NCBI GenBank assembly: GCA_944381215.1
Contig: CALWKF010000001.1
Coordinates: 65,201-129,200 of the forward strand
Length of the DNA: 64,000 nt
Origin: an uncultured Clostridia bacterium
Lineage (GTDB): Bacteria > Bacillota > Clostridia > Christensenellales > UBA1242
Direction of reading: 5' to 3'
Part shown: positions 7,612 through 62,511 of the stretch, one piece after another
Layout: each line of letters opens with the position of its first letter
Position numbering within the stretch: position 1 is the stretch's first letter
Translations under genes and position numbers: made by a program
Notes under the pieces: model-generated
What the model was told of the DNA's origin: nothing
The model's input: the letters and a program-made list of their open reading frames with translations, nothing else
Database searches by the model: none

Positions 7612-7953
7612 ATGAACATTATCGCAACTCTTGAAAAAGAAGGCTTGAAGGAAAAAGTTAATGACTTCAACATCGGTGACACCGTTAGAGTGTACGTAAA
7701 AGTTGTTGAAGGCGACAAAGAGCGTATTCAGGCTTACGAGGGTGTTGTAATTGCACGTAAGAACGGTAGTATTCGCGAGACATTCACTGTGCGCCGTATC
7801 AGTTTTGGCGTAGGTGTCGAGAGAACTTTCCCAGTACACTCACCGCGTATCGACCGCATTGAGGTTGTGCGCAAGGGTAAGGTACGCAGAGCAAAACTTT
7901 ACTATGTTCGCAAACTCAGTGGCAAGCGCGCTAAGATTAAAGCCAGCATCTAA
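7612..7953 (+). CDS. rplS: 50S ribosomal protein L19
   Basis: [62 protein letters not shown] is a typical L19 sequence. AAGGAGG RBS. Confidence 0.97.
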
Positions 7954-7971
7954 TTTTTCTACAATATTTAA

Positions 7972-7997
7972 AGAACCGTTTCCGCGGTTCTTTTTTG
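7972..7997 (+). terminator. rho-independent terminator of rplS
   Basis: agaaccg / cggttct 7-bp stem with a 6-nt loop, then a T run. Confidence 0.75.
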
Positions 7998-8003
7998 CTT
8001 TTT

Positions 8004-8335
8004 AAAGAGGATACTGGGCTGGCGCGGTGCGTAGGTGTATTCCAAATATATTTAGGGTCATCCTGAGTGTCGACCCGCGTAGCCTTTGTAACTCAGCGCA
8101 TATGGAAAGTAGCAATAGAAATATTTAGCATGACGCTGCCCGAAGGATCTCATTCCTGCCTCTTAAAACAAACGGAGCACAAGTAATCGCTTTAAGAGGC
8201 TACTGTGGCTAGCGCGAGAGCATTCATTTCTAATTATACCAATCACTTACGCGCCAGACTTCCCGCAAGCGGGAAGGCATCCTGAGCCCGCCCCGCGAAG
8301 CCTTTAGACGAAGGATCTATTCCTCTTAGATACTT
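8004..8335 (+). repeat. mosaic GC-rich intergenic repeat array 1 (same module family as 59250-60062)
   Basis: Modules: X (8014-8056, CTGGGCTGGCGCGGTGCG...ATATATTTAGG); long core (8057-8153, GTCATCCTGAG...GTAACTCAGCGCAT...GACGCTGCCCGAAGGATCTCAT); Y (8203-8277, with the cttcccg-caag-cgggaag hairpin at 8259-8276); short core (8278-8320). No ORF. Confidence 0.85.
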
Positions 8336-8382
8336 TTCCCAGTATTTTACAGCCTCTAATTTTCTAAAAAACTTCGATTAAT

Positions 8383-8411
8383 TTGCTAAAACCTCTAAAT
8401 ATTGATATAAT
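8383..8411 (+). promoter_or_regulatory. strong sigma-A promoter of paralogue A
   Basis: TTGCTA (8383-8388), 17-nt spacer, TGaTATAAT extended -10 (8403-8411). The same block recurs at 60157-60185. Confidence 0.6.
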
Positions 8412-8452
8412 ATAAATATCAAATATTATTTATATCATTAGGAGGCCAAAAA

Positions 8453-8512
8453 ATGGAGCACTCTTTTAATACAAAAATGCATAAAAACCTACGGGGGGGG
8501 GGCGCTTTCTAG
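8453..8512 (+). other. 5' leader ORF (MEHSFNTKMHKNLRGGGAF*) carrying G10; the true N-terminus of paralogue A when the tract is 9 or 12 G
   Basis: AGGAGG at 8440-8445, ATG at 8453. With 10 G the frame stops at TAG 8510-8512. Deleting one G reads through as ...NLRGGALSSLIISCIAILILCAVFGLSFAQF..., in frame with ORF 8553-10772. Confidence 0.7.
8493..8502 (+). repeat. poly(G)10 homopolymer (candidate slipped-strand switch)
   Basis: Counted directly: acGGGGGGGGGGcgc. Confidence 0.9.
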
Positions 8513-8552
8513 CCTAATAATATCTTGTATCGCAATTCTTATTTTATGTGCG

Positions 8553-10772
8553 GTGTTCGGCCTATCCTTTGCTCAATTTATCAAAAACTCCAGCAACCCA
8601 GTAAACGCATTTACCGTTAGTAGCTCAAATGCGGTCATAGTTCCTCAACTATGGAACAGCAGTACACAGTCTTTTAACCGTGATGCAATGTCTACGCTAC
8701 TTAAGTACATATCAAGCGATGGTTCCATTAATAGAGTAAACACCACTCAACAAACCGCGGCAGATATTCGTGGATACACCTATAACGGCAAAACAAATAG
8801 TCAGGCAGTAGTAGTAACCATAGGCGATTATCAGTGGCAAGTAGTCTACCTTACTCGCACAAACAACACCAGTGGTGATCGTATAGCCACACTCTTAATG
8901 GTAGACAATGGTGGCACCGCTTCATTTAGTCACGGTGGATATGATAGAGGTAACAACTGGACAGGTGCTTATCCCTCCAATATGTATGGTGCTAGTTACC
9001 TTCGTGCTGTTACGCTAAACAATGGTGGAACGTACGCTAATATTACTGTTACTTATAGTAATTCATACTCAACTGCAACAGCAACTCAGTCCTCATCTCA
9101 TAAATACGCTTTATATACGGTAGCCTCACAAGGACTAACTAATTACTTAGTACAGCCTAAAAATGTATGGTATCAAACACGGGCTCAACTAACAGGCAGT
9201 GCTAATCCAGAAGGTTACACTTTAAACAACGAGTCTCTATCCACAACCATAAGTACAGGCTGGAACAACAATAATGCTTCTACTTACTCTTATCAATCTA
9301 AAGCCAACTACACGCAGTGGAGGAATGACTATCTCTGGTGTCCTAGCCTTTCAGAAACAGGTACAAGTAATTCTAAGTTAGGTATTTGGGAGTTATCCAC
9401 AACAGAACGTTCAGCTTCTACTGATTGGTGGTCGCGGTCTGGTGGCTATTCTAATTCGGACTCTGCTTACTACCTTGATTCCTCCGGCTCCAGCTGTAAT
9501 GACAGCGTTGTGCACTATAACAACGGCGTGCGGGTAGCGCTTCACTTAAATCTTGATAAAATTGCTCAAGATTTAACATACGCAATAACTGCCACATCGG
9601 ATACACAAAGTATCGTAGATAAAAATTCGTTAGAATACTACTTATTATTAAACGCCGAAGTTACCTTTACATATACTGCAAACCCCAATTATTATATAAA
9701 TCAAGTTCAAATTGGTTCTACTACAGTAACTAATTTCCAAACTACAATACCTAGTAGTTTTACTAACGCGGGTACTTTTCAATACAAGGCATATAGAGTA
9801 AATAATAGTAATAGTGTAAGTGTGGTGTTAAAGTCACTTACTACCGATTTAAATTTATCGTGTAGTGCGCAATCATACATTAATATCTCCACCGAAAACG
9901 CGGCGGTAACCGTAAATAGTTATAATCGAACGAATTATTTTTCTACGACCGCTACAATTTCCGTTCAACAAAATGTGGCATACACCCAGAGGTTTAGATT
10001 ACCAAGCCAAAACTGGATAGATATTAGCACAACTGCCTCGGGCGATGGTTATGTCGGCAGTATTTATTACCAGTACACGACCGCCAATAATGTTATAACC
10101 CTAAATTTCGAAAACCTCACCTTAGGCACAGTTTTTGAGGTCATCTTCAGCGGAGATGAGAAACCACTCTCATACACTGCAACGGGTGGCACGGCGACCT
10201 TCGAGGAATTTATAGATGATGAGGGCTACACCAATATAATCGTGCGCCCAGCAGAAGGCTATTATGTGAACACGATTACGGTCGACAACGTGGCCTTTAC
10301 TGTCGAGTACTACCGCGCCGAAATCATGGGGGCGGGCAATGCTCGAATTATCGGCTACACCGTAAAGGACACCAACAACGTGCTCGACTTGTGGCTCGTT
10401 GGGCAGTACGACAACTCCAACATCGTTTTCAACCTCTCCACAACTCGCCCTACCTACAGAGTCCCCGCGACAGGTGGGGCGGTTACTGGCACGGTAGTTA
10501 CTGCTGGTGCTGGCGGTGAAGCGCGCATTGTGGGCTTTGACTCAAGCGACACCGCAGATACTGACACTCTTACCTTTATCGCGGTAAGTTACTCGGGCTA
10601 CGCCTTCTCGGGCTGGGAGGTCGACGGCCAAATTCTCTCGGGCTACGGTTCGAATGCCTCGATTCCGTATTCGCTAGTTAAGGACAAAGTGGTAACCGCA
10701 GTCTTTACACCCACTTCGAATAACTCCGCAAACGGCACCACCGACAACCCCTGGGGCTCCGACATCGCCTAA
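8553..10772 (+). CDS. large secreted/surface protein, paralogue A: WWSRSG...GVRxALHLNL head (DUF6273-like) plus InlB-B-repeat-like C-terminus; as sequenced it lacks its signal anchor
   Basis: 739-aa ORF starting at an internal GTG with no RBS. Residues ~20-340 are highly similar by eye to the 60559-62511 product. The C-terminal YSGYAFSGWEVDGQ...VTAVFTP is a Listeria/Bacteroides-type B-repeat motif. Confidence 0.8.
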   Translation: MFGLSFAQFIKNSSNPVNAFTVSSSNAVIVPQLWNSSTQSFNRDAMSTLLKYISSDGSINRVNTTQQTAADIRGYTYNGKTNSQAVVVTIGDYQWQVVYLTRTNNTSGDRIATLLMVDNGGTASFSHGGYDRGNNWTGAYPSNMYGASYLRAVTLNNGGTYANITVTYSNSYSTATATQSSSHKYALYTVASQGLTNYLVQPKNVWYQTRAQLTGSANPEGYTLNNESLSTTISTGWNNNNASTYSYQSKANYTQWRNDYLWCPSLSETGTSNSKLGIWELSTTERSASTDWWSRSGGYSNSDSAYYLDSSGSSCNDSVVHYNNGVRVALHLNLDKIAQDLTYAITATSDTQSIVDKNSLEYYLLLNAEVTFTYTANPNYYINQVQIGSTTVTNFQTTIPSSFTNAGTFQYKAYRVNNSNSVSVVLKSLTTDLNLSCSAQSYINISTENAAVTVNSYNRTNYFSTTATISVQQNVAYTQRFRLPSQNWIDISTTASGDGYVGSIYYQYTTANNVITLNFENLTLGTVFEVIFSGDEKPLSYTATGGTATFEEFIDDEGYTNIIVRPAEGYYVNTITVDNVAFTVEYYRAEIMGAGNARIIGYTVKDTNNVLDLWLVGQYDNSNIVFNLSTTRPTYRVPATGGAVTGTVVTAGAGGEARIVGFDSSDTADTDTLTFIAVSYSGYAFSGWEVDGQILSGYGSNASIPYSLVKDKVVTAVFTPTSNNSANGTTDNPWGSDIA

Positions 10773-32565: not shown

Positions 32566-35500
32566 ATGAGTACATTCTTGAGGGGTGTAAACCTATCTAA
32601 AAAGTGGTTAAAGATTACATTATTTGCCCTTTTAGCGGTCGTTTGCGCCACTGCGATTACTCTCGCGGTAGTCCTCTCTGGTCGCGATAACTATGTCGTT
32701 ACACCAGAGACAGAGTCAAAGGTCGAGGTGCTAGATTCCAGTGCGATTGTGTCTAAAAATGGCTGGAATAACACCTTGCTAGCACAACTCACTCAAAATG
32801 TGACTTCGTATGGGGATAATGTTGCTCTTGGTAATGCGGGTGGCGACATTGTGTCCTCAGTTGTTGAGTTGGGCGGTATTTCGTGGACCGTCGTATACAT
32901 GCAAGATGGTATAGTTACACTGTATGCAAATGAGGCAGTGGCTACTATGCCTTTTGGCAATACTGAATATAAAAATAGTCTAGTTAGAGATTACCTAATC
33001 AACGAATTTTACCCTGAGTTTATCGAAAAAATCGGCTATACCGACATCGAAAAATACATAATTCCTTATGGGCAGAGCGATATCTACTACCAGGCTGACG
33101 GCGCGCAGGCTGTTGTTTTGAGCACCCTAAATGGTGGCGAGATTAGCGGTAACGACGGCGTGGCAAACGATATGGTTTGGCTACCAAGTGCCTACGAAGT
33201 GGGCGGTTTTGCTAATAACGATTCTTCACCAAAATCACGTGTAAATAGTTTTAAAGTTATCGAGGCTGACGGCTTTACTTTAAATAGTGGTCTATTTAAC
33301 ACTTCAAACACTATTAGGCTTATGACCGATACATCTTGGCTCCGTTCTAGCGTAAATGGTGCACAATCAGCACTCAAAGATGGTGTTGTAAAGCAAGTTA
33401 ATGACGGGGAGTACGCAGTGCGCCCTTGTATCAATATCGCTCTTCCAGGCCTTGCTGACATTGTCGAAGTAAGCGAAGATATCGACAGTTCAAATGATAC
33501 CATTCTCGCAACTGTTGCTCCTGACTACTCGGACATTTTCAAAGAGTATTCTGACAATCAAGGTGAAGGCACGCAAGCAAGCCCTTATGTATTCTCTGAT
33601 CGCCAATTCCTAATCTATCTATCTGACGCAGTTATGGCTGGTCAGGATACAACTGATATGTACTTTCAAATGGCCGGTGACATCGACATGACTGGTGTGA
33701 CTGTTTGGAGTCCAATTGGTAGGGAAGGGTTCCCATTTAAGGGTCATTTTGATGGTAACGGTTACACTGTTAGCAACCTCGCTTCGGCAGGCTCGGGCCT
33801 TGTAGGTCTATTTGGCTATGTTGAAAATGCTGTTATTACTCAAGTGGGTGTTACAAATTCCTCTTGGTACACAACAAACTCTAATGTCGGCGGTATCGCA
33901 GGCCACGTTACAAACTCGCTAATTTCCGAGTGCTACAGCGATTGTGGTGTCGGTGGATACAAATATGTTGGTGGTCTAGTAGGTAGAATTATTCGTAGTA
34001 CTTCAACCGACGACTCTAAGGGTATTATAAACTGCTACAACCTCAATGGTATCACTGGCCGTGATTATGTCGGCGGTATCGCAGGTGAGGTATCAGCATC
34101 ATTAGTTAAAAACTGCTATAACACTGGTGCTACACAGGCAATCTACTCAAACCCAAGTTGCGGTGGTATTGCAGGTGCTCTAAACAACTCACCTAGTACC
34201 AGTTCGCTACAAAACTGTGTCTTCTACAACTCAACTGACAACAACCTTAACGGCGACACACCAATTTCATCTTATGACACTCTGCGTAACAGGGATGCAA
34301 TCGCTACTACATACCCAAGCTGGTCATTTAGGAACACCACCGCTAATGGCGTATGGTTCATGTCTAACGTAGTAAACGATCGTCTGCCTATGCTTTACTG
34401 CTTTATGCACAATGTTTCCGTTAACCTAATTTCGAACATCCCCGAGTGCTCCGTTTCTGCTGGCAAAACTGATGCGCAGATTAACTCGACACTCGCTATC
34501 GTTGCCTACGCAACTTCTACTACTAACGAGCACTACATGTTCGAGGGCTGGTATCACTTCGATGTTGACGCAGCAGGGAACAAGATTGAGGGGTCCGAGC
34601 GTCCGTTTGTGCTAATGTCTGATGAAAACAACGGAATTACAAAAGGCGCACTTTCTAATAACGCATACCCCTTCACATACAATCTAGTGTTAGACGACTA
34701 CTACAACCTCGAAGCGCGCTTTGTAAAACTATACAACTTTGAAGTAAGTCCTATGTTTAATGGCTTCACATCAAACTATACTGGTGGCTCTACATTTAGT
34801 TATACCGCTCATAACAGTGAAATGACTGCTGTACAGCCTGCTTATAACACTGATTTAACCACATGGACTAGCGGTGCTAGATGGTACCCTGAGGGCACTG
34901 TAATTACAATCAATATTCAGCCCGATGCTCAGCGTCAGTACTATCAATTAAATGTTGGACACAGCAGTACTAATGTTAATAATCAAGTGGCTAATCTAGG
35001 TGAGGATAATCCTTTCTACAACTTATCTTCAGGAGAGAATGGCTGGACATATAATATCACTATTAGAGATACAGCGGAATGGAATGGCTTTGATGTGTTC
35101 TATTTCAGACCTATGTTTAACAGGGTATATGCTCTCACCACTTCAGTAACTACTCCGTCAGGATACACCGAGACTACACCTATTTCACAGGTAACGTTTA
35201 CTAATCTGTCCAATGGCTCGACTACTATTAGCAGTAGTGGTGGAACAGCAACTGACAACACTATCTACACATCGACATTGACACTTAATATATCCAACTT
35301 AAATGATGTAAGTGGCAAACTCGTGTTCAGTAGTTGGATTCTAGAGTTTGTCGACCCAAGTGCTGGGGCACAAAGCTCTCAAGACCTTGGATCAAGTGTT
35401 GGTGCTACAAATGGGCAATATGCATTAACTGGCATTCAATCTGCTGTAACAGACACAACAACAGGCATTAATATTAGGGCAAACTTTAATTACGACACAA

Positions 35501-37197
35501 AACAGGTGTCAATTAGGGAAATGTACAACAGTGCTGAAAATTCTAATGCAGGTTACGTATATCTTTCCACAGAAAAGAAGGAGTCAAGTTTTGTGCCTAC
35601 ACAGGACATAACACAACTTACAAATCTTGACTACAACTCGACTGTCTACATCTACATTTTGCCTAACTATGCTGGTGGTTTCCAATACTCTTCGAACACT
35701 ATTCCTGGGGCTAACCTTACATCAAATTCATCTACTGGCGTAACTTATGGTAGTTTTGTAGTAAACTTTGCCGAAAGCAGTGCTACATATGATGTAGTAT
35801 ACACCGAGGCTAGCAACTTTGCGCTCAACTTTAATGTAACGCTGAATGGTGCAACACCTCCAGAAGACACCTTCCAAGTGTCAAGTAACGCAACTGGCCT
35901 CACTCTAAACTCGCCACTTAGCAGTTACACTGTAACCGTTTTGGGTGAGAACGAGTACAGAAAGTACTACATGAGAACTGTTAGAGTCGCATTCATTCCT
36001 GACTCTCTCGATGCAAATGGGACTACAATTATTACCTATACACCTAGTGGAATTTACCAAGGAACACAGGGTGCTCAGTCGATATTTGCGGGCCTTGGAG
36101 CAAACGCAGTTGTTAACAACATTTACACGAAAGCAAATGTTACGCCGAGCAACAAGAACACAACAATTTATGTTTACATTAACTACATTACGATTACTCG
36201 TACAATTAATGTAACTGAGTATATTGACAATGTTCCCACAACTTCTCGTAGTATGTACTCAATCACTGCTACTGGCGTTACAAACGGAAAGGGTGGTAGT
36301 GATTACATCCTAGAGGACACTATCACTCTAACTGCTGGCGCGTCAGGGGCTGATCAAATCGGTTTTAGAGTTGACTCAATTACAATTACTCCAAATCTTG
36401 CTGCTGCAACTATTGATGGCTCTACTTGGGGAAATTCTGGTACCCTTAAATTTAAGTTAACCGAGGATGTATCAATTTCAATTTACTACACTCAACGTCC
36501 ATACAACATCACTATCGGCGACAACTTAAACAACACAAGTTATGGTAGCACAGTTACTGGATTGAAAGTTACTGTTAGCAACAACCACTTTAACTACACT
36601 TTAACTGGTGGTTCTTCAACGCAATACAGCGCACCATTTACGGGTTTATTCTCTAATAGCTTAACTATTAATGGTTATCAAACTCAAATTGATTTAACAA
36701 TTGATGATTTAAAGCGCAAGGCAGTGCTTAATCGTATCGTTGTGCTCGATTCGAACAATGCTTTACTAAAGGAATATGACCCAGCATCGCAATTTACCTA
36801 CACACTAAACGATGCAAACGACAATATAAAAATTGTATTCCAGTATCAACTGTTACAGGCATTAAATGTAACATTTAGTGATGAAGTAACTGGGGGAAGT
36901 AACGCAGCACTCGTAGTTCTCGAAAATGTACATGATTCTAGCGACCGCCTAGTACTAATCGTACCAGCAGGGCAAGACGGTGTTACAGTAGATTGTCAAG
37001 TTGCTGAATACCGCGTAACTATTACCGTTGCAATCTTTGTTCAAACCGCTGTAAATACTACTCCTGTTGGTTCAGGTAGTGTGCAGGACGGTAACTACCA
37101 GATTTCTATTGCAGATGGAAAGGCAACTTCGGTAGCAATTACAGTGCAAAACATTATTAACGGTGTGGACAGCGTGTTTGCATCAGGCTCGATGTAA
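32566..37197 (+). CDS. giant surface protein: N-terminal signal anchor, DUF6273-like head, GLUG-motif repeats, long Ser/Thr/Asn-rich beta-rich region
   Basis: TM LKITLFALLAVVCATAITLAVVL. MVWLPSAYEVGG...SWLRSS...YAVRPCINIAL (same head family as the two paralogues). Repeated VGGIAG / VGGLVG ...NCYN (GLUG-like). GGAGGA RBS. Confidence 0.85.
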   Translation: MSTFLRGVNLSKKWLKITLFALLAVVCATAITLAVVLSGRDNYVVTPETESKVEVLDSSAIVSKNGWNNTLLAQLTQNVTSYGDNVALGNAGGDIVSSVVELGGISWTVVYMQDGIVTLYANEAVATMPFGNTEYKNSLVRDYLINEFYPEFIEKIGYTDIEKYIIPYGQSDIYYQADGAQAVVLSTLNGGEISGNDGVANDMVWLPSAYEVGGFANNDSSPKSRVNSFKVIEADGFTLNSGLFNTSNTIRLMTDTSWLRSSVNGAQSALKDGVVKQVNDGEYAVRPCINIALPGLADIVEVSEDIDSSNDTILATVAPDYSDIFKEYSDNQGEGTQASPYVFSDRQFLIYLSDAVMAGQDTTDMYFQMAGDIDMTGVTVWSPIGREGFPFKGHFDGNGYTVSNLASAGSGLVGLFGYVENAVITQVGVTNSSWYTTNSNVGGIAGHVTNSLISECYSDCGVGGYKYVGGLVGRIIRSTSTDDSKGIINCYNLNGITGRDYVGGIAGEVSASLVKNCYNTGATQAIYSNPSCGGIAGALNNSPSTSSLQNCVFYNSTDNNLNGDTPISSYDTLRNRDAIATTYPSWSFRNTTANGVWFMSNVVNDRLPMLYCFMHNVSVNLISNIPECSVSAGKTDAQINSTLAIVAYATSTTNEHYMFEGWYHFDVDAAGNKIEGSERPFVLMSDENNGITKGALSNNAYPFTYNLVLDDYYNLEARFVKLYNFEVSPMFNGFTSNYTGGSTFSYTAHNSEMTAVQPAYNTDLTTWTSGARWYPEGTVITINIQPDAQRQYYQLNVGHSSTNVNNQVANLGEDNPFYNLSSGENGWTYNITIRDTAEWNGFDVFYFRPMFNRVYALTTSVTTPSGYTETTPISQVTFTNLSNGSTTISSSGGTATDNTIYTSTLTLNISNLNDVSGKLVFSSWILEFVDPSAGAQSSQDLGSSVGATNGQYALTGIQSAVTDTTTGINIRANFNYDTKQVSIREMYNSAENSNAGYVYLSTEKKESSFVPTQDITQLTNLDYNSTVYIYILPNYAGGFQYSSNTIPGANLTSNSSTGVTYGSFVVNFAESSATYDVVYTEASNFALNFNVTLNGATPPEDTFQVSSNATGLTLNSPLSSYTVTVLGENEYRKYYMRTVRVAFIPDSLDANGTTIITYTPSGIYQGTQGAQSIFAGLGANAVVNNIYTKANVTPSNKNTTIYVYINYITITRTINVTEYIDNVPTTSRSMYSITATGVTNGKGGSDYILEDTITLTAGASGADQIGFRVDSITITPNLAAATIDGSTWGNSGTLKFKLTEDVSISIYYTQRPYNITIGDNLNNTSYGSTVTGLKVTVSNNHFNYTLTGGSSTQYSAPFTGLFSNSLTINGYQTQIDLTIDDLKRKAVLNRIVVLDSNNALLKEYDPASQFTYTLNDANDNIKIVFQYQLLQALNVTFSDEVTGGSNAALVVLENVHDSSDRLVLIVPAGQDGVTVDCQVAEYRVTITVAIFVQTAVNTTPVGSGSVQDGNYQISIADGKATSVAITVQNIINGVDSVFASGSM

Positions 37198-38145: not shown

Positions 38146-38185
38146 AAAGTTTTAGATTTGGGCAATCTAATTCTTGGAGGAAAAT

Positions 38186-41100
38186 ATGAATTCGAATAGA
38201 TTCTTTAAGTTGAGCAAATGGAAGATAATGCAAACCGTTCTCTTGTTGCTTTTAGGAGCGGTTGTTGCAATATCTTTCTTGGTGCCTAATTCCATTTCAA
38301 ATAGGAATTATGTAAGTGCAGATGAGGTCGATGCAGTGCCAGCGAGTTCGCTTGAAGGATTTGTTCCTACTGCGCTAGGTAGTGGTGAATACTTCGAGAC
38401 CGAGGTCGATTCTAGTGTCGAGCCAAATGCTACTTACTACCTAATTAGTGATGCGGATGACTTGCGCACGCTAGCTTACTTTGTAAACACTACATTTACA
38501 GAGGAGCAGACTAGCGAATTAGAGTTGCAGGAGAAATATTCGCGCGCATCTTACCGCATGACGAATCACATCGACCTGTCTAGGTGGACTCAATGGGAGC
38601 CTATTGGTACCATGGCGAATCCTTTCTCGGGGTCGTTTAGTGGACAGGGGTATTCGATTTATGGCTTAACCATTATCGATGATATCGAAGAGCCTACTAC
38701 AGATACTTATGCTGGTTTATTTGGTAATGTATCTTATCTAAAGGACGGCGACACTGAATATAAGCCCGTGATTCAGCGTCTAGGTCTAAAAGACACTATT
38801 ATCAAAACAAATCGCGAGTATGTCGGCTCAATTGTGGCAGTTGCCAATGGTGTAAACCCCATGATTTATGGTGCTGATGCCATTATCAACCCCACTTTTA
38901 GGACAAAAACTGAGGTTGAAAACATCAGTAGTGATGAAACAGTAAACAGGGCATATTCCGATGCTCAAGGGTCACTCGTTATCCAAGACTGTTACAATGT
39001 AGGTTATGTTGAGGGTGGCAACTATGTAGGTGGCCTTGCTGGTGCACTCTACTACGGTGCTGTAATCTACAACTGCTACAACGCACCCTCGACCACCAAC
39101 GCCTACAACACAAACTACGACGTATACTCTAGCAACGCAAACTCCAATATCGGTGGTATAGTTGGTGCTGGTGATTTTACCACAATGGCTATCGTATATA
39201 ACTGTATTAGTACGGTGAGTGTATCAAAACAAGATGCCACCAACAGTTCAACCAACATCGGTTATATCATTGGTAGCAAGTCAAATCTTGCAGGTAGCAC
39301 CCAGTACACATATAACGTTTATTATAATAGGAATTTTACATATTCAGGTGATTTCGGTACTGGTTTAAGTCTAGCACGTTTATCTTCGACATCTTACTTA
39401 ACAAATAGAGGCTTCTCAATTACAGGTTATAACCCTGGCACTTGGGCTAGCAATACATCAACTATTTGGGCTCAACAATCGGATGTAAACAATGGTGTGC
39501 CAGTGCTCTACAATGTCCCGCAATTAGTTAAATACGACTTTGTGGCACAGGATGTTGACGGGAATGAATTAATAGCTAGCGAAGCAATATCTGAGGCCGT
39601 AGACACTGCGGACTTAGAGGCATACGATGGCGCATTGCTATTTGAGCAGGGGACTTCGTTCTTAACTAGAGGTACTTCGGTAATGGAATATAAGTACGAG
39701 TTCAGCAAGTGGAGTGAGTATTATACTGCAAACTCTATAGAGCCTGCCGAGTATGAGGACTATATTGCAAATTCAGATATTTCAAGCGTCCAATTCTTCA
39801 CAAATCACGATGCTACAATCATTGCCGTGTTCGGCTTCAAGACTTATACACTTACGCTAACAGCAGACCCTTCAGATAAGATTGATGGCGAAAATACAAT
39901 TATATCGATAAGAGATGGCATTTCTAATACTTACAATAATGTCCAGAACGGTCTCACTGTTGAGTATAATGACGAGATAACAATCCAAGGTGTTGCTACT
40001 ACTGGTTATGAGATTAGTGCTTGGACAACTATGTATCAAGATGCAATTTCTGGTACAGGTGCGGACATTACATTAAGCGTTCAGGCTTATGTAGACGCAT
40101 ATATGAGTGCTTCACAAGCTGAAATTCCCGTAAGCCTTAATATAATCGCACATATTCAGCCAAAATCGTATGACTTTTCAATAAATGAAATCGACTCTAG
40201 CATTGGTACAATTACCGCTACAGTGAATGGTGGGGATAGCCTAGGCACTAGCGACAGCGTAGAGTTTGGCTCTCAAATCGCGCTTCAAGCAACAGTTACA
40301 GACCCTAATTATGAGTTTATTTCATGGGTGATTTCGTTTGGGAATGGAACGACTCAACAAATTGAATTACTAAACTATTCTTTCACGGTTCAAGATCAAG
40401 GTAGTATCAGCATTACCGCAAACTTCGATAAAAAGAAGTTTTACGTAACCATTTCATCGGTCGCAGGCGGTAGTGCCTCGGTAATCAGCGCAACTGAGTC
40501 ATCAACTAGTGGCAATAGCTTCTATTACGATGAGACAATAGAAATTCAAGCTACAGCAAGCACTGGTTACGAATTAACTGGAATTAATGTCTACAAGGGC
40601 GAGGAACTCATAGATCTTGACTCCGAGGGAATGGTATTTGACCTTGAGTCAGGAGTACTTACAATTAATACCTTAAATGCAGACATCCGCGTAGTTCCCG
40701 TGTTTAGCATTATGAGCTTTGACCTAACAGTTGTAGTTACCCCAGCGGACGGCGCAACAGTTACTTATAACGGCGAAAGCATCGTGGGTACGAACGAGTT
40801 TGTTTATAATACAGACGTTCCAATCAACGTGTTTGTGACAGAGGGGTACGAGTTAGTTAGCATAACCTCCGATGACGGAGCTGTTTATTCAAATGGTAAC
40901 TTCGTAAAAGTTTTGAAAGATACCACAATCACTATCACTTTGCAAAAGCAAACGTTTGTCGTAAATGTTACAATAAACTATGATTCAAGCTCTGCTTATT
41001 CAATCGATGCAAGTTGCATTAATGGAGTAGGTCAGTACACCTATGGCGATGTAGTTGAAATCAGCTTTGACACCCCCGTTATGTTTAGGTTCTCTAGGTG

Positions 41101-42724
41101 GGATCTCGCTAGAAATTATGAAAACAGTAGTTACGACAGTGTAAACGGAACATTTACTTGCACTGGAATTGAAGAAAATATTTATCTAACCGTATACTTT
41201 GCGCTAGTCAACACCCAAATCACATTTACAGCAGAAGGCGTGGATGAAGAGGGCGGATGGTACCTTTACGACGGTAGTAATATGGTTGATACCCAGGGTG
41301 AAATTGCTATCAAATCATACGCAAACGATGTGCGCGTGCAACTAGCTAGCGCATATAGAGATAACGGCGAATACACACGTAAATACACATTTAGCCACTG
41401 GGAAATCAATGGTATTCCCGTATCAAGTGCGAGCGATTACACATTTAAAGTAACTGGCGAAGAAATGAATGTCAACGCCGTGTTTATGCCAGTTGAATTG
41501 CGTGTAACCGCTAATGTTGTCAGAATCAACGAAAACTCAGGCATGTATGATAACCTTAGTGAAGCTGGCGATGTAAAAGGCTTACTAGTAAACACCTACC
41601 ACTATGGCGACGTTATCACTCTTGAAGCGTCAACTCACAAGGGCTTTGTGTTCCTAGGGTGGTATGTTTGGAACGAGAACTTGGATTCGAGCCAAGCAAA
41701 TGGCAGATTCATTACCGATGAGCCAACAATTACTTTAACTATCACATCAAACACCAAGATTTACGCCACTTTCGAGCGTATTAGCAATGTCACTATACAA
41801 ATGTCTGACGACAGCGCAGGCACAACCACTGGTAGTGGTACCTACATGGTGGGCGAAAACATCACCCTGTCTGCAACCCCTAACGCAGGTTACAGGTTCG
41901 TAAGCTGGCAGGAGAACGGTAGTGTCGTAAGTAACGATGCTAACTACCGCTTAACAGTTACTAGGGACGATCGCACTCTACTTGCTGTGTTCGAGCCAAT
42001 TTTTAAGATAACTCTTATTTCTAGTAACGATGACTACGGCAAAATTATTGGCAACACTAGCGGAAACTACCGCGAGAATGTAACCCTAAGGGCTGTCAGC
42101 GAAAACAACTGCTCCTTTGTTGGTTGGGTTATTAACGATAAGATTGTCAGCACTTCTGATACATTAAGCCTAAACCTAAACGGTGATATCGAAGTGCGTG
42201 CACTGTTTAAGAAAAACTTTGACTGGAATATCTTGATTATTTTGGTAGGTTGCGTGCTGTTTGCTGGTATCTTGATTGCTGGTTCCGCAGCTTACATCAA
42301 GATGAGAGAGGCAGAACCAATGCCTGTCCGCGTACTGCTTAATAGCAAGGATGACAAAGAAGCCCTGCAGAAGCCTTCTAGGCGCAATCAATACCGCGAC
42401 ACCATTGAGCCAGTACCTACACGCAAGAATACAAAGGCAAATGTCGCTCCTATCCCTGTTAGAAAGATTACAGTCGCTCCTATTAATCACAAGGGCGAGT
42501 TGGTAGGCAGGACAAAACGCGCCGCTGAGGAGCAACCAACACTAAAGACCGAGACAACTCCTGAAAAACCTATTGAAAAAGAAACAAAGAGTGAAAAGAC
42601 AGAAAAGCCTAAAACCACCACGGCTGCAAAGTCAAAATCAACTCAAAATTCTAAATCAAAGGCAAATAAGGGCAAGAAGTCAGGTGGCAATCACAAGGGT
42701 AAAAAGTCCAAAAAGAAAAAATAA
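38186..42724 (+). CDS. giant surface protein: N-terminal TM, GLUG-motif region, ~10 InlB-B-like repeats, C-terminal TM and ~190-aa Lys-rich tail
   Basis: ATG 38186 behind GGAGG (track TTG 38174 lies in the RBS). YVGGLAGAL...NCYN motifs. Recurring GY(E/R)F(I/V)SW / GFVFLGWY repeat motifs. TM ILIILVGCVLFAGILIAGSAAYI, then ...KGKKSGGNHKGKKSKKKK. Confidence 0.85.
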   Translation: MNSNRFFKLSKWKIMQTVLLLLLGAVVAISFLVPNSISNRNYVSADEVDAVPASSLEGFVPTALGSGEYFETEVDSSVEPNATYYLISDADDLRTLAYFVNTTFTEEQTSELELQEKYSRASYRMTNHIDLSRWTQWEPIGTMANPFSGSFSGQGYSIYGLTIIDDIEEPTTDTYAGLFGNVSYLKDGDTEYKPVIQRLGLKDTIIKTNREYVGSIVAVANGVNPMIYGADAIINPTFRTKTEVENISSDETVNRAYSDAQGSLVIQDCYNVGYVEGGNYVGGLAGALYYGAVIYNCYNAPSTTNAYNTNYDVYSSNANSNIGGIVGAGDFTTMAIVYNCISTVSVSKQDATNSSTNIGYIIGSKSNLAGSTQYTYNVYYNRNFTYSGDFGTGLSLARLSSTSYLTNRGFSITGYNPGTWASNTSTIWAQQSDVNNGVPVLYNVPQLVKYDFVAQDVDGNELIASEAISEAVDTADLEAYDGALLFEQGTSFLTRGTSVMEYKYEFSKWSEYYTANSIEPAEYEDYIANSDISSVQFFTNHDATIIAVFGFKTYTLTLTADPSDKIDGENTIISIRDGISNTYNNVQNGLTVEYNDEITIQGVATTGYEISAWTTMYQDAISGTGADITLSVQAYVDAYMSASQAEIPVSLNIIAHIQPKSYDFSINEIDSSIGTITATVNGGDSLGTSDSVEFGSQIALQATVTDPNYEFISWVISFGNGTTQQIELLNYSFTVQDQGSISITANFDKKKFYVTISSVAGGSASVISATESSTSGNSFYYDETIEIQATASTGYELTGINVYKGEELIDLDSEGMVFDLESGVLTINTLNADIRVVPVFSIMSFDLTVVVTPADGATVTYNGESIVGTNEFVYNTDVPINVFVTEGYELVSITSDDGAVYSNGNFVKVLKDTTITITLQKQTFVVNVTINYDSSSAYSIDASCINGVGQYTYGDVVEISFDTPVMFRFSRWDLARNYENSSYDSVNGTFTCTGIEENIYLTVYFALVNTQITFTAEGVDEEGGWYLYDGSNMVDTQGEIAIKSYANDVRVQLASAYRDNGEYTRKYTFSHWEINGIPVSSASDYTFKVTGEEMNVNAVFMPVELRVTANVVRINENSGMYDNLSEAGDVKGLLVNTYHYGDVITLEASTHKGFVFLGWYVWNENLDSSQANGRFITDEPTITLTITSNTKIYATFERISNVTIQMSDDSAGTTTGSGTYMVGENITLSATPNAGYRFVSWQENGSVVSNDANYRLTVTRDDRTLLAVFEPIFKITLISSNDDYGKIIGNTSGNYRENVTLRAVSENNCSFVGWVINDKIVSTSDTLSLNLNGDIEVRALFKKNFDWNILIILVGCVLFAGILIAGSAAYIKMREAEPMPVRVLLNSKDDKEALQKPSRRNQYRDTIEPVPTRKNTKANVAPIPVRKITVAPINHKGELVGRTKRAAEEQPTLKTETTPEKPIEKETKSEKTEKPKTTTAAKSKSTQNSKSKANKGKKSGGNHKGKKSKKKK

Positions 42725-58869: not shown

Positions 58870-59208
58870 ATGGCTGAAACAAAAAAGAGTTCTAGCTCAA
58901 AGTCTTCGAGCAGTAGCAGTAGTAGTAGCAGTAAGAAGTCATCAATGTGGGGCTTAAACAAGATTTCGTTCTACACAATCGCCGCAGTTGCAATTTTATA
59001 CTTGATTAGTTTAATCTTGTCTGCTTGTGGCGTTTCATCTGTTGCTGTAATGGCTATGCAGAATATCGGTACTGCTATTATGGTAGGTATCACCGCATAT
59101 CTAGCATGGAAGTATGTTCGCCCTAAACAAACCGTTTGGAAAGTACTATACTTCGTACTGTTGCTCGTAATTCTAGCTGGTATTATCGTGCCTCTAGTAA
59201 TGGGCTAA
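58870..59208 (+). CDS. small membrane protein with poly-Ser N-terminus
   Basis: AAGGAG RBS. KKSSSSKSSSSSSSSSSKKSS is encoded by an AGY/TCN run. Three hydrophobic segments. Strong terminator. Confidence 0.7.
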   Translation: MAETKKSSSSKSSSSSSSSSSKKSSMWGLNKISFYTIAAVAILYLISLILSACGVSSVAVMAMQNIGTAIMVGITAYLAWKYVRPKQTVWKVLYFVLLLVILAGIIVPLVMG

Positions 59209-59216
59209 AAACAAAA

Positions 59217-59243
59217 AACTTGGGATACCCCAAGTTTTTTTGT
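59217..59243 (+). terminator. rho-independent terminator
   Basis: aacttggg / cccaagtt stem with a 4-nt loop, then T7. Confidence 0.8.
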
Positions 59244-59249
59244 TTTTAA

Positions 59250-60062
59250 AGGCCATTATACTAACGCAGTGCGAGGACGTACTTCCAAATATATTTAAGG
59301 TCATCCTGAGCCCGCCCCGCGAAGCCTGAGACGAAGGATCTCATTCCTGCCACTTTTAAAAGGACACTGGGCTGGCGCGAGAGTATTCGTTTCTAATTAT
59401 ACCAATCATTCGCGCGCCAGACTTCCCGTAAACGGGAAGGCATCCTGAGCCTCGACCCGCGAAGCCCTTTGTAACTCAGCGCATAGGAAAAGTAACAATA
59501 GAAATATTTAGCACGACGCTGCCCGAAGGATCTCATCTCATCCGCTTAAAAAGGACACTGGGCTGGCATGGTGCGAAGTCGCACACAATATATTTAAAGT
59601 CATTCTGAGCCCGCCCCTCGTAGCCTTCGACGAAGAATCTCATTCCATCCGCTTTAAAAGGCCACAGGGCTGGCGCGAGAGTATTCGTTTCTAATTATAC
59701 CAATCATTCACGCGCCAGACTTCCCGCAAGCGGGAAGGCATCCTGAGCCCGCCCCGCGAAGCCTTCGTAACTCAGCGCATAAGAAAAGCAACAATAGAAA
59801 CATCTAGCATGACGCTGCCCGAAGGATCTCATCTCCTTTGGTCATCCTGAGCCCGCCCCGCGAAGCCTGAGACGAAGGATCTCATTCCTGCCTCTTAAAA
59901 CAATGCCCAACAAACCATAAAGATGTAGTAGAACAAAGCGGCTGAGATTCTTCGTCTCAGGCTCTGTAAGCAGGGCTCAGAATGACAGTGTTTTTTACCA
60001 ATAAAATCACTTAGTCATCCTGAGTGCCGACCCTCGAAGCTCTCAGACGAAGGATCTCATCC
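59250..60062 (+). repeat. mosaic GC-rich intergenic repeat array 2 (about 0.8 kb)
   Basis: Core copies: short 59300-59344, long 59441-59536, short 59599-59643, long 59739-59832, short 59841-59885, inverted short 59944-59986, short 60014-60060. Y modules: 59367-59440 and 59665-59738. X modules: 59261-59299 and 59556-59598. No ORF. Confidence 0.9.
59944..59986 (-). repeat. inverted copy of the short core module
   Basis: gagattcttcgtctcaggc...ggctcagaatgac is the reverse complement of the GTCATTCTGAGCC...GCCTGAGACGAAGAATCTC consensus. Confidence 0.85.
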
Positions 60063-60156
60063 ACTTATTTACTGCTTTCTAAAGAGATTTTTTACGCAAT
60101 TTAAATAATTTACCAGTATTTTACAGCCTATAATTTTTAAAAACTTTTTAAAAAAT

Positions 60157-60185
60157 TTGCTAAAAACCTCGAAAATTGTTATAAT
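60157..60185 (+). promoter_or_regulatory. sigma-A promoter, homologue of 8383-8411
   Basis: TTGCTA (60157-60162), 17-nt spacer, TGtTATAAT (60177-60185), within a block homologous to 8338-8420. Confidence 0.55.
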
Positions 60186-60362
60186 AATATTATTAGAATA
60201 TGTAAAGGAGGGAATCAACAACAAACAACTTCTAGGACGATGTAGCCTTTAATTGCTAGTTAATCATAGTATAACCTTGTTTAATTTAAGTCGATTATTA
60301 AATTATATCTTGTTCCTAGTCTAAAATTAAATTATATTAAGTTATGTTGTTGAAAAATAAAT

Positions 60363-60422
60363 ATGAAGTACTCTTTTAATACAAAATTGCATAAAAACCT
60401 ACGGGGGGGGGGCGCTTTCTAG
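60363..60422 (+). other. relic leader ORF (MKYSFNTKLHKNLRGGGAF*) carrying G10, now a uORF in the 5' leader of paralogue B
   Basis: About 75 bp near-identical to 8459-8530. No good RBS. With 9 G it would run only to a TAA 14 codons later, not into the gene. Confidence 0.6.
60403..60412 (+). repeat. poly(G)10 homopolymer, second copy
   Basis: Counted directly: acGGGGGGGGGGcgc, in the same context as 8493-8502. Confidence 0.9.
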
Positions 60423-60558
60423 CCTAAAAATTTCTTGTATTAGAAAAACTCACTTTAATCTATAAATTTATTTTTAATCAAAAAATTTAATTAATTTTAC
60501 TAAAAATAAAAGTAATTTATAGAAAATGTCGTAATTTTATAACAAAAGGTGAGTTTTT

Positions 60559-62511
60559 ATGATAAAATTATCCAAAACTAAAACGAGTTTAATAGTAACC
60601 CTTGTCTGCATTTTCTGTATAGCCACACTATTAACCGCTTTTTTATTTACCCCGAAAGATATGGTAAACGCATTTACCAGTGTCGATAGTTCGAACGCAG
60701 TCGTTGTGCCTCAATTATGGGGTGAGTCCAGCCAGTCTTTTAACTATGATGCAATGTCAACACTACTAAGTTACATATCCAGTGATGGCACAATTAATGG
60801 GGTAAATACTACCCAGCAGACCGCCGCAGACATTCGCAACTATACCTACGGAGGAAAAGAAAGTGGAAAATCAGTCGTAGTAACTCTAGGTGATTACCAA
60901 TGGCAAGTAGTATACCTAACTAGGACAGGTAACACCACCGGCGACCGTATAGCCACATTACTAATGGTTAATAACGATGGTACAGCTAGTATAACTCCTG
61001 GTGGCTTCGATAGTGGTAGTAACTGGACAGGTGCTTATCCCTCTAATATGTATGGTGCTAGTTATATGCGTGCAGTTATCTTAAATAATGGCGGAATATA
61101 TGCTAATATTACTGCTGATAGTAACAATTCATATTCAACAGCATCAGCTACTCAATCTGCATCGCACAAGTACGCATTATATACTGTAGCCTCACAAGGA
61201 CTAACTCATTACTTAGTACAACCTAAAAATGTATGGTACCAAACCCAAGCACAGTTAACAGGCAGTGCTAATCCCGATGGATACACTCTAAACAACGAGT
61301 CATTATCTACCAGTATAAGTACAGGCTGGTACAGGAACTACGCTTCTGGTTACTCATACCAAACAAAGAACTATTACACCCAATGGGGGAATGACCATTT
61401 GTGGCTACCCAGCCTTTCAGAGACAGGTACAAGTAATTCTGAGTTGGGTATTTGGGAGTTGTCCACAACAGAACGTTCGGCTTCTAATGAGTGGTGGTCG
61501 CGGTCTGGTTGCTATAATGATTCGTACAGTGCTTACTTCCTTTATCCTTCCGGCTCCATCTCTCGTATCGGCATGGTGCACACTAGCTACGGCGTGCGGC
61601 CTTCGCTTCACTTAAATCTTGACTCTGCATTGAATAATTTAACAAATGATATAATAGTAGAGTCAAACGATTCTACTCAAGGTACAGTTTCAGGCGGTGG
61701 AGTGTATGACTTTGAGTATACGGGCACCACCACAATCACTGCACTTGCAAATTATGGCTATGTATTCGACTACTGGCAAGACAGTAGCGGGAACAAAATT
61801 TACCAAAACCCATATACTTTTCCAGTAACTAAAAGCGAAACATATACTGCATATTTCCGTGAACCTATAATTACAATTACATCCTCAAATGGTGGTGCCG
61901 AAATTACTCGTACAGACACCGATCCCGGCAACGTGTCAATCACTTATGGCCTAACATTTTCTGCAAATAATTATATATCGGGCATAATAATCAATAGCGG
62001 AGTTGTCCAAGATATCGGGAGCCTGAGTGGTGATTTAATAGTTGATGACACTTGCACCGCCATAAGTTACCGCACCAACACAACGGGCTCGCAACTCATA
62101 CTTGAAATTTTTCAAGTTACCAACGATATCACCATAAACCTAATATTTGTCGACATTGCCCAAAGTTACACCCCCGCCAGTGGTGGCACTAGTATTACGG
62201 GTGTCGCATTGCAAGTGAGCGGAGGCAATGGCGCGACCTTTGAGGCGGTAGGAGAGGCTCGAATCACAGGCTACTCCCAAGCCGAAAACATCACCTACGT
62301 GCACGTGAGCGCAGTCCCTTCGAGTGGCTACTATTTCGTAGGCTGGCAGACTAGCGACGACACCGACCTAAGCGATTACGGAAGCAGTGCCGACATCCCA
62401 TACAACCTAATCGAGGGAAAAATACTCACCGCTGTCTTCGCCCCCAAAACTTCTCAAAATGCCGACTCCACGCTAGACAACGCAGGGGACCAGTTTGCAC
62501 CCACTAGTTAA
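60559..62511 (+). CDS. large secreted/surface protein, paralogue B (DUF6273-like head plus B-repeat-like domains), intact with its own signal anchor
   Basis: MIKLSKTKTSLIVTLVCIFCIATLLTAFLF signal anchor. LWLPSLSE...WWSRSG...GVRPSLHLNL. GYVFDYWQDSSGN and GYYFVGWQTSDD repeat motifs. Confidence 0.85.
   Translation: MIKLSKTKTSLIVTLVCIFCIATLLTAFLFTPKDMVNAFTSVDSSNAVVVPQLWGESSQSFNYDAMSTLLSYISSDGTINGVNTTQQTAADIRNYTYGGKESGKSVVVTLGDYQWQVVYLTRTGNTTGDRIATLLMVNNDGTASITPGGFDSGSNWTGAYPSNMYGASYMRAVILNNGGIYANITADSNNSYSTASATQSASHKYALYTVASQGLTHYLVQPKNVWYQTQAQLTGSANPDGYTLNNESLSTSISTGWYRNYASGYSYQTKNYYTQWGNDHLWLPSLSETGTSNSELGIWELSTTERSASNEWWSRSGCYNDSYSAYFLYPSGSISRIGMVHTSYGVRPSLHLNLDSALNNLTNDIIVESNDSTQGTVSGGGVYDFEYTGTTTITALANYGYVFDYWQDSSGNKIYQNPYTFPVTKSETYTAYFREPIITITSSNGGAEITRTDTDPGNVSITYGLTFSANNYISGIIINSGVVQDIGSLSGDLIVDDTCTAISYRTNTTGSQLILEIFQVTNDITINLIFVDIAQSYTPASGGTSITGVALQVSGGNGATFEAVGEARITGYSQAENITYVHVSAVPSSGYYFVGWQTSDDTDLSDYGSSADIPYNLIEGKILTAVFAPKTSQNADSTLDNAGDQFAPTS

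Follow-up and report, generated by a model that had tools for sequence, protein, structure and literature searches.

The DNA considered here, a window of 64,000 nucleotides on contig CALWKF010000001.1 of an uncultured Clostridia bacterium (Christensenellales; assembly GCA_944381215.1), carries two paralogous genes for surface proteins of the DUF6273-family/InlB-B-repeat kind, each preceded by an array of short repeat units. We refer to the region of 8004-8335 as locus A, to that of 59250-60066 as locus B, and to the genes that follow as paralogues A and B. At both loci the array occupies the gap between an intrinsic-terminator-like hairpin and a promoter-like site of the form TTGCTA-17-TGnTATAAT (Table 1). 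The anatomy of the units, their distribution and their variation between strains suggest that the arrays are probably clusters of a dispersed, mosaic family of hairpin repeats that acts at the level of the DNA. The family is neither tied to the surface-protein genes nor a dedicated component of them.

Table 1. Features of loci A and B, in window coordinates (HMM, hidden Markov model; ORF, open reading frame; aa, amino acids).
Feature	Position	Strand	Remarks
rplS (L19)	7612-7953		L19 identity from Pfam
Intrinsic-terminator-like hairpin of rplS	7970-7993	+	terminator scan; left boundary of array A
X leader, array A	8004-8056	+	Y-like start ACTGGGCTGGCGCG, then GTGCGTAGGTG...AAATATATTTAGG; 76% match to 59236-59327 and 59546-59627; partial Y-profile match at 8003-8026
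Long core, array A	8057-8171	+	HMM profile and box matches; insert profile E=1e-19; 5' box GTCATCCTGAG at 8057-8067, 3' box CGAAGGATCTC at 8141-8151, tail ATTCCTGCCTCTTAAAACAA; nested insert of ~60 nt, CAGCG...CGCTG hairpin at 8082-8142; 87-88% identity to 59441-59551 and 59739-59837
Short unique spacer, array A	8172-8187	none	~16-22 nt, no counterpart at locus B; gap between blastn matches, one ending at 8171 and the next starting at 8188
Y leader, array A	8188-8275	+	Y profile E=5.5e-22; 92% identity to 59650-59765; terminal inverted-repeat arm TTTAAGAGG at 8191-8199; hairpin 1 CTAGCGCG...CGCGCCAG at 8209-8257; hairpin 2 CTTCCCG-CAAG-CGGGAAG at 8259-8276
Short core, array A	8276-8330	+	core profile E=3e-19; GGCATCCTGAG, GCGAAGC mini-hairpin motif at 8295-8301, CGAAGGATCTA at 8309-8319; tail ATTCCTCTTAGA pairs with arm 8191-8199
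Promoter-like site of paralogue A	8383-8411	+	TTGCTA, 17 nt, TG-extended TATAAT (TGnTATAAT)
Paralogue A	8453-10772	+	ATG at 8453; main ORF 8553-10772
Gene for a 112-aa membrane protein	58870-59208		directly 5' of the array B terminator
Intrinsic-terminator-like hairpin of the 112-aa gene	59213-59240	+	left boundary of array B
Array B	59250-60066	+	seven cores, six on + and one on -
Array B, unit 1, X	59250-59299
Array B, unit 2, short core	59300-59342
Array B, unit 3, Y	59355-59438
Array B, unit 4, long core	59439-59534
Array B, unit 5, X	59545-59598
Array B, unit 6, short core	59599-59641		T/A helix variant
Array B, unit 7, Y	59653-59736
Array B, unit 8, long core	59737-59830
Array B, end, short core	59841-59883		followed by a spacer
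Array B, end, inverted short core	59944-59986	-	ATTCT/AGAAT helix variant; the sole inverted core
Array B, end, short core	60014-60058
Promoter-like site, locus B	60157-60185	+	hexamers and spacing as at locus A
Relic of an A-type gene head, locus B	60363-60440	+	G10 tract at 60403-60412; 93% identity to 8449-8530
Paralogue B	60559-62511	+	650 aa; own start and signal peptide

The order at locus A (X leader, long core, unique spacer, Y leader, short core, between the rplS terminator and the promoter of paralogue A) is that given in the initial annotation of the window, which had passed over two features of locus B: one of its seven cores is inverted, and its G10 'leader' is a relic. Array B contains a double unit of ~298 bp in tandem duplicate (spacings of 298-299 bp), and its inverted core forms with 59841-59884 an inverted pair that is 80% complementary.

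Within the window the family is confined to these two loci, as had been claimed. The boxes GTCATCCTGAG and CGAAGGATCTC, searched with at most one mismatch, occur nine times each where ~0.5 copies are expected, and none of 100 shuffles of the window reached nine. All copies lie inside 8057-8319 (two cores, + strand) or 59300-60058 (six cores on the + strand and one on the - strand). Three profile HMMs (core, Y leader, long-core insert), made from 53 copies of the lineage and run with nhmmer --max, revealed no diverged copies elsewhere in the window, the only significant matches being those at 8003-8331 and 59297-60068.

Each unit is composed of a leader, X or Y, that is built of hairpins, followed by a core; the modules of the family are X, Y, the short core, the long insert and the tail. 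The consensus of the 53 distinct cores of the lineage reads G(G/T)CATCCTGAG – 8-9 nt – GCGNAGC or GCGNNAGC – YYYAGA – CGAAGGATCT – ATTCC(G/T)CTTAAA, and comprises a closing helix of 5 bp (ATCCT/AGGAT), a GA/GA mismatch pair, a central mini-hairpin and a tail. The heptamer or octamer of the mini-hairpin is present in 38 of the 53, at a constant distance of 8-9 nt downstream of GAG, and takes the forms GCGAAGC, GCGTAGC, GCGTTAGC, GCGCAAGC and GCGTAAGC. Mini-hairpins of the GCGNAGC and GCGNNAGC type are reported to be extraordinarily stable as DNA and far less so as RNA, and to occur at the single-strand origins of the phages G4, St-1 and α3 (PMC13037366). The long cores carry in addition a nested insert of ~60 nt with its own CAGCG/CGCTG hairpin, and the two hairpins of the Y leader are CTGGCGCG...CGCGCCAG and CTTCCCG-N4-CGGGAAG. 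Moreover, the tail is complementary to the beginning of the unit (AAGCGGAAT / ATTCCGCTT; TTTAAGAGG / CCTCTTAAA), at 7-9 of nine positions in most Y units. Further conserved sub-modules, namely a GGTGCG-N4-CGCAC hairpin followed by CCCGATATA, and also CTTGGGYTACAACTAAAAAAATAAGAGG, show that the family is a mosaic. For 14 Y units RNAalifold returned three hairpins with 20 pairs, three of these pairs with compensatory changes and almost no pairs broken, and whole units folded as single-stranded DNA took on a closed, multi-branched form with z-scores of -1.3 to -4.5.

The core itself reaches far beyond this lineage. The motif GTCATYCTGAG–mini-hairpin–CGAAGRATCT was recovered from at least nine phyla and from phage contigs, its simplest form across phyla being GTCATCCTGA-GCGAAGC-GAAGGATC. 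The pattern CATCCTGAG-N15-45-CGAAGGATCT matched in 77 contig stretches of IMG/VR; the upstream bases, which the pattern did not force, were GT in 71 of the 82 distinct instances, against ~5 by chance, and the variable centre of these cores folds better than its own shuffles. A pattern scan of one genome per species, with a lineage-type core centre and a helix position left free, yielded at least 103 genome blocks with the core. Among the matches listed, in which the genome of the window's own species may be absent, are Acidobacteriota, Gemmatimonadota (including Longimicrobium), Chloroflexota, Planctomycetota, Omnitrophota, Patescibacteria, Bacteroidota, Cyanobacteria-related groups/Obscuribacterales, Armatimonadota and several Clostridia. 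When a canonical core was compared by BLAST with annotated plasmids and phages, copies turned up in plasmids of Hymenobacter and Planktothrix and in one virus, none with an informative annotation, and a literature search by sequence (11-mers of both boxes, both strands) returned only primers and unrelated matches.

The helix of the core covaries perfectly. When the third helix position was left free, C...G was found 79 times, T...A 30 times and a mixed combination never; when all five positions were free, 296 of the 493 matches were perfectly complementary, whereas the random background peaks at four mismatches. The main helix types are ATCCT/AGGAT (202) and ATTCT/AGAAT (75), both of which occur in the window, and the minor ones ATTCC/GGAAT (8), ATTTC/GAAAT (6) and ATCCC/GGGAT (4). 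This covariation is strong evidence of a selected hairpin in a single-stranded nucleic acid. As a separate observation, tandem repetition of the 5' core half (TGTCATYCTGAGCG.AGCCC), with two to five copies at a ~21-nt period followed by only one 3' half, is frequent in other phyla (L039:12014-12078; L090:3478-3577; L136:4604-4780; L137:1849-1950; also L053, L070, L075, L143, L151 and L167), a pattern that points to slippage or to iteron-like growth of half-sites.

The arrays differ between metagenomic strains. The L19 of the window and the synteny of rplS, array, paralogue A and leuS recur in ten metagenomic contigs. One of these (L078) is identical to the window throughout the upstream region of locus A, from the rplS stop to the gene head. 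Five others (L079, L081, L083, L084, L085) have an inverted Y+core unit and then two X+core units; in L082 there are three cores, one long and two short, and in L086 two, one inverted and one direct, the Y+core unit being inverted in L086 as it is in L079 and L083. Locus A holds two or three cores in syntenic strains, with varying order and orientation of the units. The same core follows a Y leader in the window and an X leader in L082, which indicates that modules were exchanged and not simply inserted. Locus B has seven cores in the window and a single intact one in L191/L192, and its order differs again in L194. The expansion and contraction that the initial annotation had read from the copy numbers of the two window arrays (two versus seven) is borne out by arrays that differ in core number and composition between strains at both loci. 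A more diverged contig, L080, is contig 5 of CASEHF01, a metagenome-assembled genome (MAG) labelled 'uncultured Christensenella sp.'; CASEHF01, which shares the synteny of the window and an identical L19 protein, is therefore a congener of the window organism and is called the sister MAG below.

Several further observations were made on these contigs. In most strains ~110 bp of imperfect tandem repeats of ~26 nt (TTTCTATAAAGCTAGC...; L079:10343-10470 and likewise L081-L086) lie between the rplS stop codon and the terminator; the window and L078 are without them. Many contigs (L193-L197, L087, L198/L199) stop at or inside arrays or ~120 nt upstream of the paralogue, which fits a multi-copy family that breaks short-read assemblies. 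In scaffold_2260 of ERZ16268101 (30,996 bp; the source of L086 and L191) a block of uvrA, sigma-70, the 112-aa gene, array and paralogue B is followed by tRNA-Ile/Ala, a gene for a lipoprotein of 272 aa, degV and further genes up to rplS and paralogue A. Here B lies ~9 kb upstream of A, versus 51 kb downstream in the window, where uvrC comes after B. No core lies at the junction after B, and the order reflects a genuine rearrangement or else a chimeric assembly. A circular replicon of ~60 kb as the cause of the adjacency was ruled out, because the window runs on into uvrC after B.

The two paralogues are 74% identical as proteins over the N-terminal 343 aa. In Pfam, InlB-type B repeats were matched in both, and DUF6273 in paralogue B and in the sister-MAG orthologue of A, paralogue A itself matching only Flg_new_2; an exact-sequence look-up of paralogue B in an assemblies collection gave no match. 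The start of paralogue A is out of frame with the main ORF owing to a G10 tract at 8493-8502, and G9 would restore the frame. At this position the strains have G8, G9 (four strains), G10 (three) or G11 (e.g. L079:11055-11063; L082:10741-10748; L086:10946-10956), and in the G9 strains an ORF of 765 aa is called from the upstream ATG. The G10 of the window is an OFF state of paralogue A, and the tract, which lies in the region of the signal peptide, is a classic homopolymer contingency switch; it is a trait of gene A, not of the repeat arrays, and by itself explains the phase variation. Since the arrays lie upstream of the promoters they cannot alter the reading frame, nor are they part of the mRNAs of A and B unless transcription reads through the upstream terminators. 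A G9 tract was also seen in the signal-peptide region of a distant homologue from another organism (33% identity; L202:5034-5042), which has no repeat array, and homopolymer switching may be a recurrent trait of the protein family.

The G10 tract at locus B belongs to a remnant of such a gene head. It has no Shine-Dalgarno sequence, every frame is closed, and it sits ~120 nt upstream of the start of gene B, between an insertion of 157 nt and the gene's own leader. The window has G10 in this tract and L191 has G9 (L191:7005-7090). The DNA of the two loci is homologous in direct orientation: 76-92% identical in the repeat units (various coordinates), 79% in the promoter (A 8335-8426 vs B 60109-60201), 93% in the head with the G tract (A 8449-8530 vs B 60359-60440) and 78% over 964 bp of the gene body (A 8601-9556 vs B 60664-61622). 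The relic head is closer to A than the flanking promoter and gene body are. Exact matches of more than 25 bp occur only in the repeats (56, 31, 28 and 26 bp) and in the head (40 bp, including G10), whereas the longest in the gene bodies is 23 bp. The stretch between the loci includes the usually essential genes for LeuRS, GatA/GatB and PriA, and also those for UvrB and UvrA.

This homology map, with its longest exact matches, bears out much of what the initial annotation had said: A and B are copies in direct orientation with usually essential genes between them, the duplicated cassette of shared repeat units, promoter, head and gene is real, and the homology available for recombination was placed correctly. 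The repeats, dispersed as they are in the sister MAG, are no dedicated part of that cassette. Outside the repeats and the head no stretch is long enough to allow efficient exchange by homology, which makes the proposed recombination between the loci plausible, if unproven. In the strain of L086 and L191 the A head has the B variants of the window and the B head has an A variant of the window, two single-nucleotide differences of the head being mosaic between A and B. This hints at A/B conversion but is not proof of it.

The initial annotation had asked, as a check, whether every genomic copy adjoins a member of this protein family. In the sister MAG it does not. CASEHF01 accounts for at least 19 blocks on at least 15 contigs, and the 19 listed blocks contain at least 25 intergenic clusters with complete cores, none of them inside an ORF. 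As many as 21 of the 25 listed clusters have no paralogue in their own block of 8 kb; by tblastn a paralogue is present in three of the 19 listed blocks (L119, L138 and L189). The neighbours elsewhere include RecR, CCA/polyA polymerase, ClpP, an M50 peptidase, ScpA and helix-turn-helix regulators. Several clusters are placed between housekeeping genes that converge, a setting in which a promoter would not be expected. In L166 an array stands 3' of a homologue of the 112-aa gene with no paralogue after it, and in L198 cores lie between an unrelated gene for 254 aa and secG. Relatives have a third array just left of where the window starts, between a membrane-protein gene and a tRNA-Ile/tRNA-Ala cluster. 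At that place three or four partial 3' halves of tRNA-Ile (GGTGGGAAGCAATGGACTCGAACCATCGACCT; L078:250-880, L079:1400-2025) precede the intact tRNA-Ile(GAT) and tRNA-Ala(TGC), next to the repeat array; they look like scars of repeated integration into the tRNA. Conversely, the more distant DUF6273 homologues in L200, L201 and L202 have no cores upstream, and neither an array nor a G tract precedes the two secreted giants of the window, one of 1543 aa with a DUF6273 domain (32566-37197) and one of 1516 aa with InlB-type B repeats (38174-42724). A lineage-like core variant (centre ...CGTCGACCCGCGCAAGCCTATATT...) was also noticed in contigs of ~41% GC (L103, L130, L146, L185) from CAVEBU01, labelled Alistipes finegoldii; the label may be a binning error. 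Many unrelated intergenic sites are thus occupied by the repeats, and this undoes the initial picture by half only, for some enrichment beside the paralogues persists.

It could still be argued that the arrays are a functional part of a system for surface-protein variation, in the manner of the neisserial intergenic mosaic elements (NIMEs), and stay beside contingency genes either for promoting recombination or conversion between paralogous cassettes or for acting as regulatory DNA from upstream. Both arrays of the window lie directly upstream of paralogues, out of ~50 intergenic gaps, and the paralogues of the sister MAG have arrays nearby at loci with unrelated promoters; among them, the orthologous locus alone has a promoter homologous to that of the window. 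The repeats and head as sites of the longest exact A/B matches, the mosaic differences of the head in two strains, its 93% identity as against 78-79% for the flanks, and the contig with B upstream of A would also suit such a role. We consider this unlikely. Apart from the listed clusters that are not near a paralogue, array content varies between strains while promoter and head are kept, distant homologues and the other giants of the window do without arrays, and the core is spread over phyla beside unrelated genes. Moreover, the sample of paralogues is tiny and was partly ascertained through the repeats.

The compensatory changes in the three hairpins and in the core helix also speak for structured RNA. 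The units might then be RNA genes or cis-elements (small RNAs, 3'-UTR stabilisers or back-up terminators), the core being an RNA hairpin with tandem G·A pairs that is bound by a widely conserved RNA-binding factor. The GA-rich positions outside Watson-Crick pairing are kept on one strand, the cores of the lineage are co-oriented with the upstream genes and stand directly 3' of terminators, and one report proposes that hairpin clusters terminate transcription (PMC8355165). Nevertheless, an RNA role of this kind appears quite improbable. Rfam 15 had no match in the window at the gathering threshold and nothing relevant at E<=10 over locus B, and only a tRNA was matched among 12 loci that abound in canonical and lineage copies. 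Outside the lineage the core shows no preference for a strand relative to flanking ORFs (16 co-oriented versus 18 anti-oriented, and 12 versus 14 in viral contigs), as judged from ORF calls that are crude, especially in high-GC genomes. Combinations of the G·U type are nearly absent (0 of 109 with one helix position free; four in ~320 in a relaxed search), the stability of the GCGNAGC centre is far greater in DNA than in RNA, and at loci A and B no promoter-like site was found 5' of the units and no U-tract 3' of the cores. A strong autonomous RNA hairpin was ruled out for the lineage cores because their RNA folding z-scores, taken in isolation, are close to 0, and a hammerhead-like ribozyme, suggested by the resemblance of CUGA...GAA to the hammerhead core, was ruled out on inspection by the missing UGA of CUGAUGA and the lack of an Rfam match. 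The absence of strand bias outside the lineage, the rarity of G·T-type combinations, the DNA mini-hairpin at the centre and the lack of Rfam matches argue for action at the DNA level.

Mobility in trans offers another explanation, in which the units are miniature inverted-repeat transposable elements (MITEs) served by a transposase that is encoded elsewhere, and the arrays reflect repeated insertion into a hot spot. The units have terminal inverted repeats of 9-12 bp (the pairs of tail and unit start given above), copies exist in both orientations, the long cores resemble nested insertions, and the copies in phage contigs and plasmids are possible carriers between hosts. We hold this to be very improbable: no target-site duplication can be defined, because conserved sequence runs past the inverted repeats into further sub-modules, no transposase adjoins any copy examined, and the differences between strains look like module exchange at shared segments rather than clean insertion or excision. 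Among 150 ORFs adjacent to cores, with products as diverse as ribosomal protein L4 and phage portal and terminase proteins, no enriched Pfam family was seen, and ORFs flanked by cores proved to be M50 peptidase, ClpP and similar proteins. Finally, CRISPR arrays and tandem small-RNA genes are disfavoured by units that abut, fall into several types, are 76-95% alike and form a mosaic, by the lack of promoter-like sites, and by the ~298-bp period being that of a duplicated double unit.

The interpretation that we prefer, with a probability of roughly 0.62, is that the arrays are clusters of a dispersed family of mosaic hairpin repeats, comparable to the bacterial interspersed mosaic elements (BIMEs), to BOX and to NIMEs, acting at the DNA level. 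Units would have spread into many gaps between terminator and promoter and between convergent genes, and would be reshuffled, inverted, duplicated and lost through recombination or slippage between copies, most likely acting as single-stranded DNA hairpins rather than as transcripts. Both paralogues have long upstream gaps that tolerate arrays. The promoter-proximal cassette, i.e. the last unit, the promoter, the G-tract head and the 5' part of the gene, was probably copied between the loci by duplication or conversion, after which array B may have grown by tandem duplication of the 298-bp double unit. The units may also affect recombination or insulate transcription.

Several points weigh against this interpretation. 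The conservation of 21 core nucleotides across phyla is atypical for the families of repetitive extragenic palindromes (REP), BOX and NIME, each confined to a species or genus, and neither a Y1 transposase of the REP-associated type (RAYT) nor any other transposase was found among the 150 core-adjacent ORFs or ten sister-MAG neighbours. Most cores of the lineage share the orientation of the flanking genes (11 versus 3; in the window 8 versus 1), where gene orientation is confounded with replication direction, and an RNA-level role in read-through transcripts may exist. The Y unit of locus A folds no better than its shuffles (z = -1.3), and isolated cores folded as RNA gave no significant z-score. 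The census of copies stems from a congeneric MAG and not from the complete genome of the window organism. In that MAG the two paralogues that came from a protein search, independently of the repeats, each have an array no more than 1 kb upstream, so that enrichment beside the paralogues remains and some functional link is possible.

The likeness to BIME, BOX and NIME, drawn from general knowledge, is one of architecture only. REPs and BIMEs are imperfect hairpin palindromes of Enterobacteria, found at dozens of intergenic sites, often after terminators or between convergent genes; REPs have a GTAG head, are associated with RAYT, an IS200-like enzyme whose gene they typically flank, and are specific to species or genus. 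The present family likewise consists of short imperfect palindromes that form hairpins (three hairpins and five helix types), and its dispersed intergenic copies lie in mosaic clusters of variable composition and both orientations in the sister MAG. However, its cores start with GTCATCC or GGCATCC and have no conserved GTAG, no RAYT was found near the copies examined, the core ends are kept across many phyla, and the units are longer (110-200 nt) and contain several hairpins. BOX elements of Streptococcus pneumoniae have the structure boxA-boxB(n)-boxC, are genus-specific, sometimes lie beside phase-variable or surface genes and have no transposase. Here too the host is a Firmicute and the elements are modular, with variable internal modules, intergenic and of stable predicted structure, with no transposase found beside the copies examined; as in BOX and NIME, the modules vary in number (two and seven cores in the window, one to three in other strains). 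The cross-phylum core and the nested inserts set the present family apart from BOX. NIMEs consist of RS units flanked by dRS3, lie near surface-protein and contingency genes and have been proposed to provide homology for recombination; Correia elements are also neisserial. Like NIMEs, the present arrays consist of units of 50-150 bp with short inverted repeats at their ends and lie near such genes, but most of the present copies, in the sister MAG, are away from surface-protein genes, and there is no dRS3-like integrase target. Terminal inverted repeats are shared with MITEs. Since GTAG is absent, RAYT was not found and a MITE-type target duplication is not demonstrable, we liken the family to the REP and MITE classes but file it in none of them. 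With regard to the mini-hairpins, the known natural examples are single sites, such as single-strand origins of phages and plasmids and the N4 promoter, and not dispersed repeats, whereas here the same heptamers and octamers stand at the centre of cores in arrays (PMC13037366).

A more far-reaching proposal starts from the core itself, which might be an undescribed hairpin element of single-stranded DNA that spreads horizontally and is read by broadly conserved machinery, e.g. as a signal for priming or processing that involves primase or excludes single-stranded DNA-binding protein, or by a hairpin-specific mobilising enzyme. Among the gut Clostridia of the present lineage, the element would have been built into multi-hairpin units that pile up beside phase-variable surface-protein genes and drive rearrangement. 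We regard this as unlikely.

For the organism of the window, the two surface-protein loci are to be re-read, with the arrays as generic intergenic repeats and not as promoter logic. The arrays nevertheless contain the longest exact matches of two contingency loci that stand as direct repeats on either side of leuS, gatA/gatB and priA. They also mark breaks in metagenomic assemblies of the organism and may explain its rearranged contigs. The core, with its distribution across phyla and its perfect helix covariation, is unannotated in the records checked and absent from Rfam. If it is not merely tolerated junk, its recogniser, once found, would account for a sequence that contaminates the gene calls of many uncultured genomes, and could reveal a new mobilisation or single-strand DNA signal.

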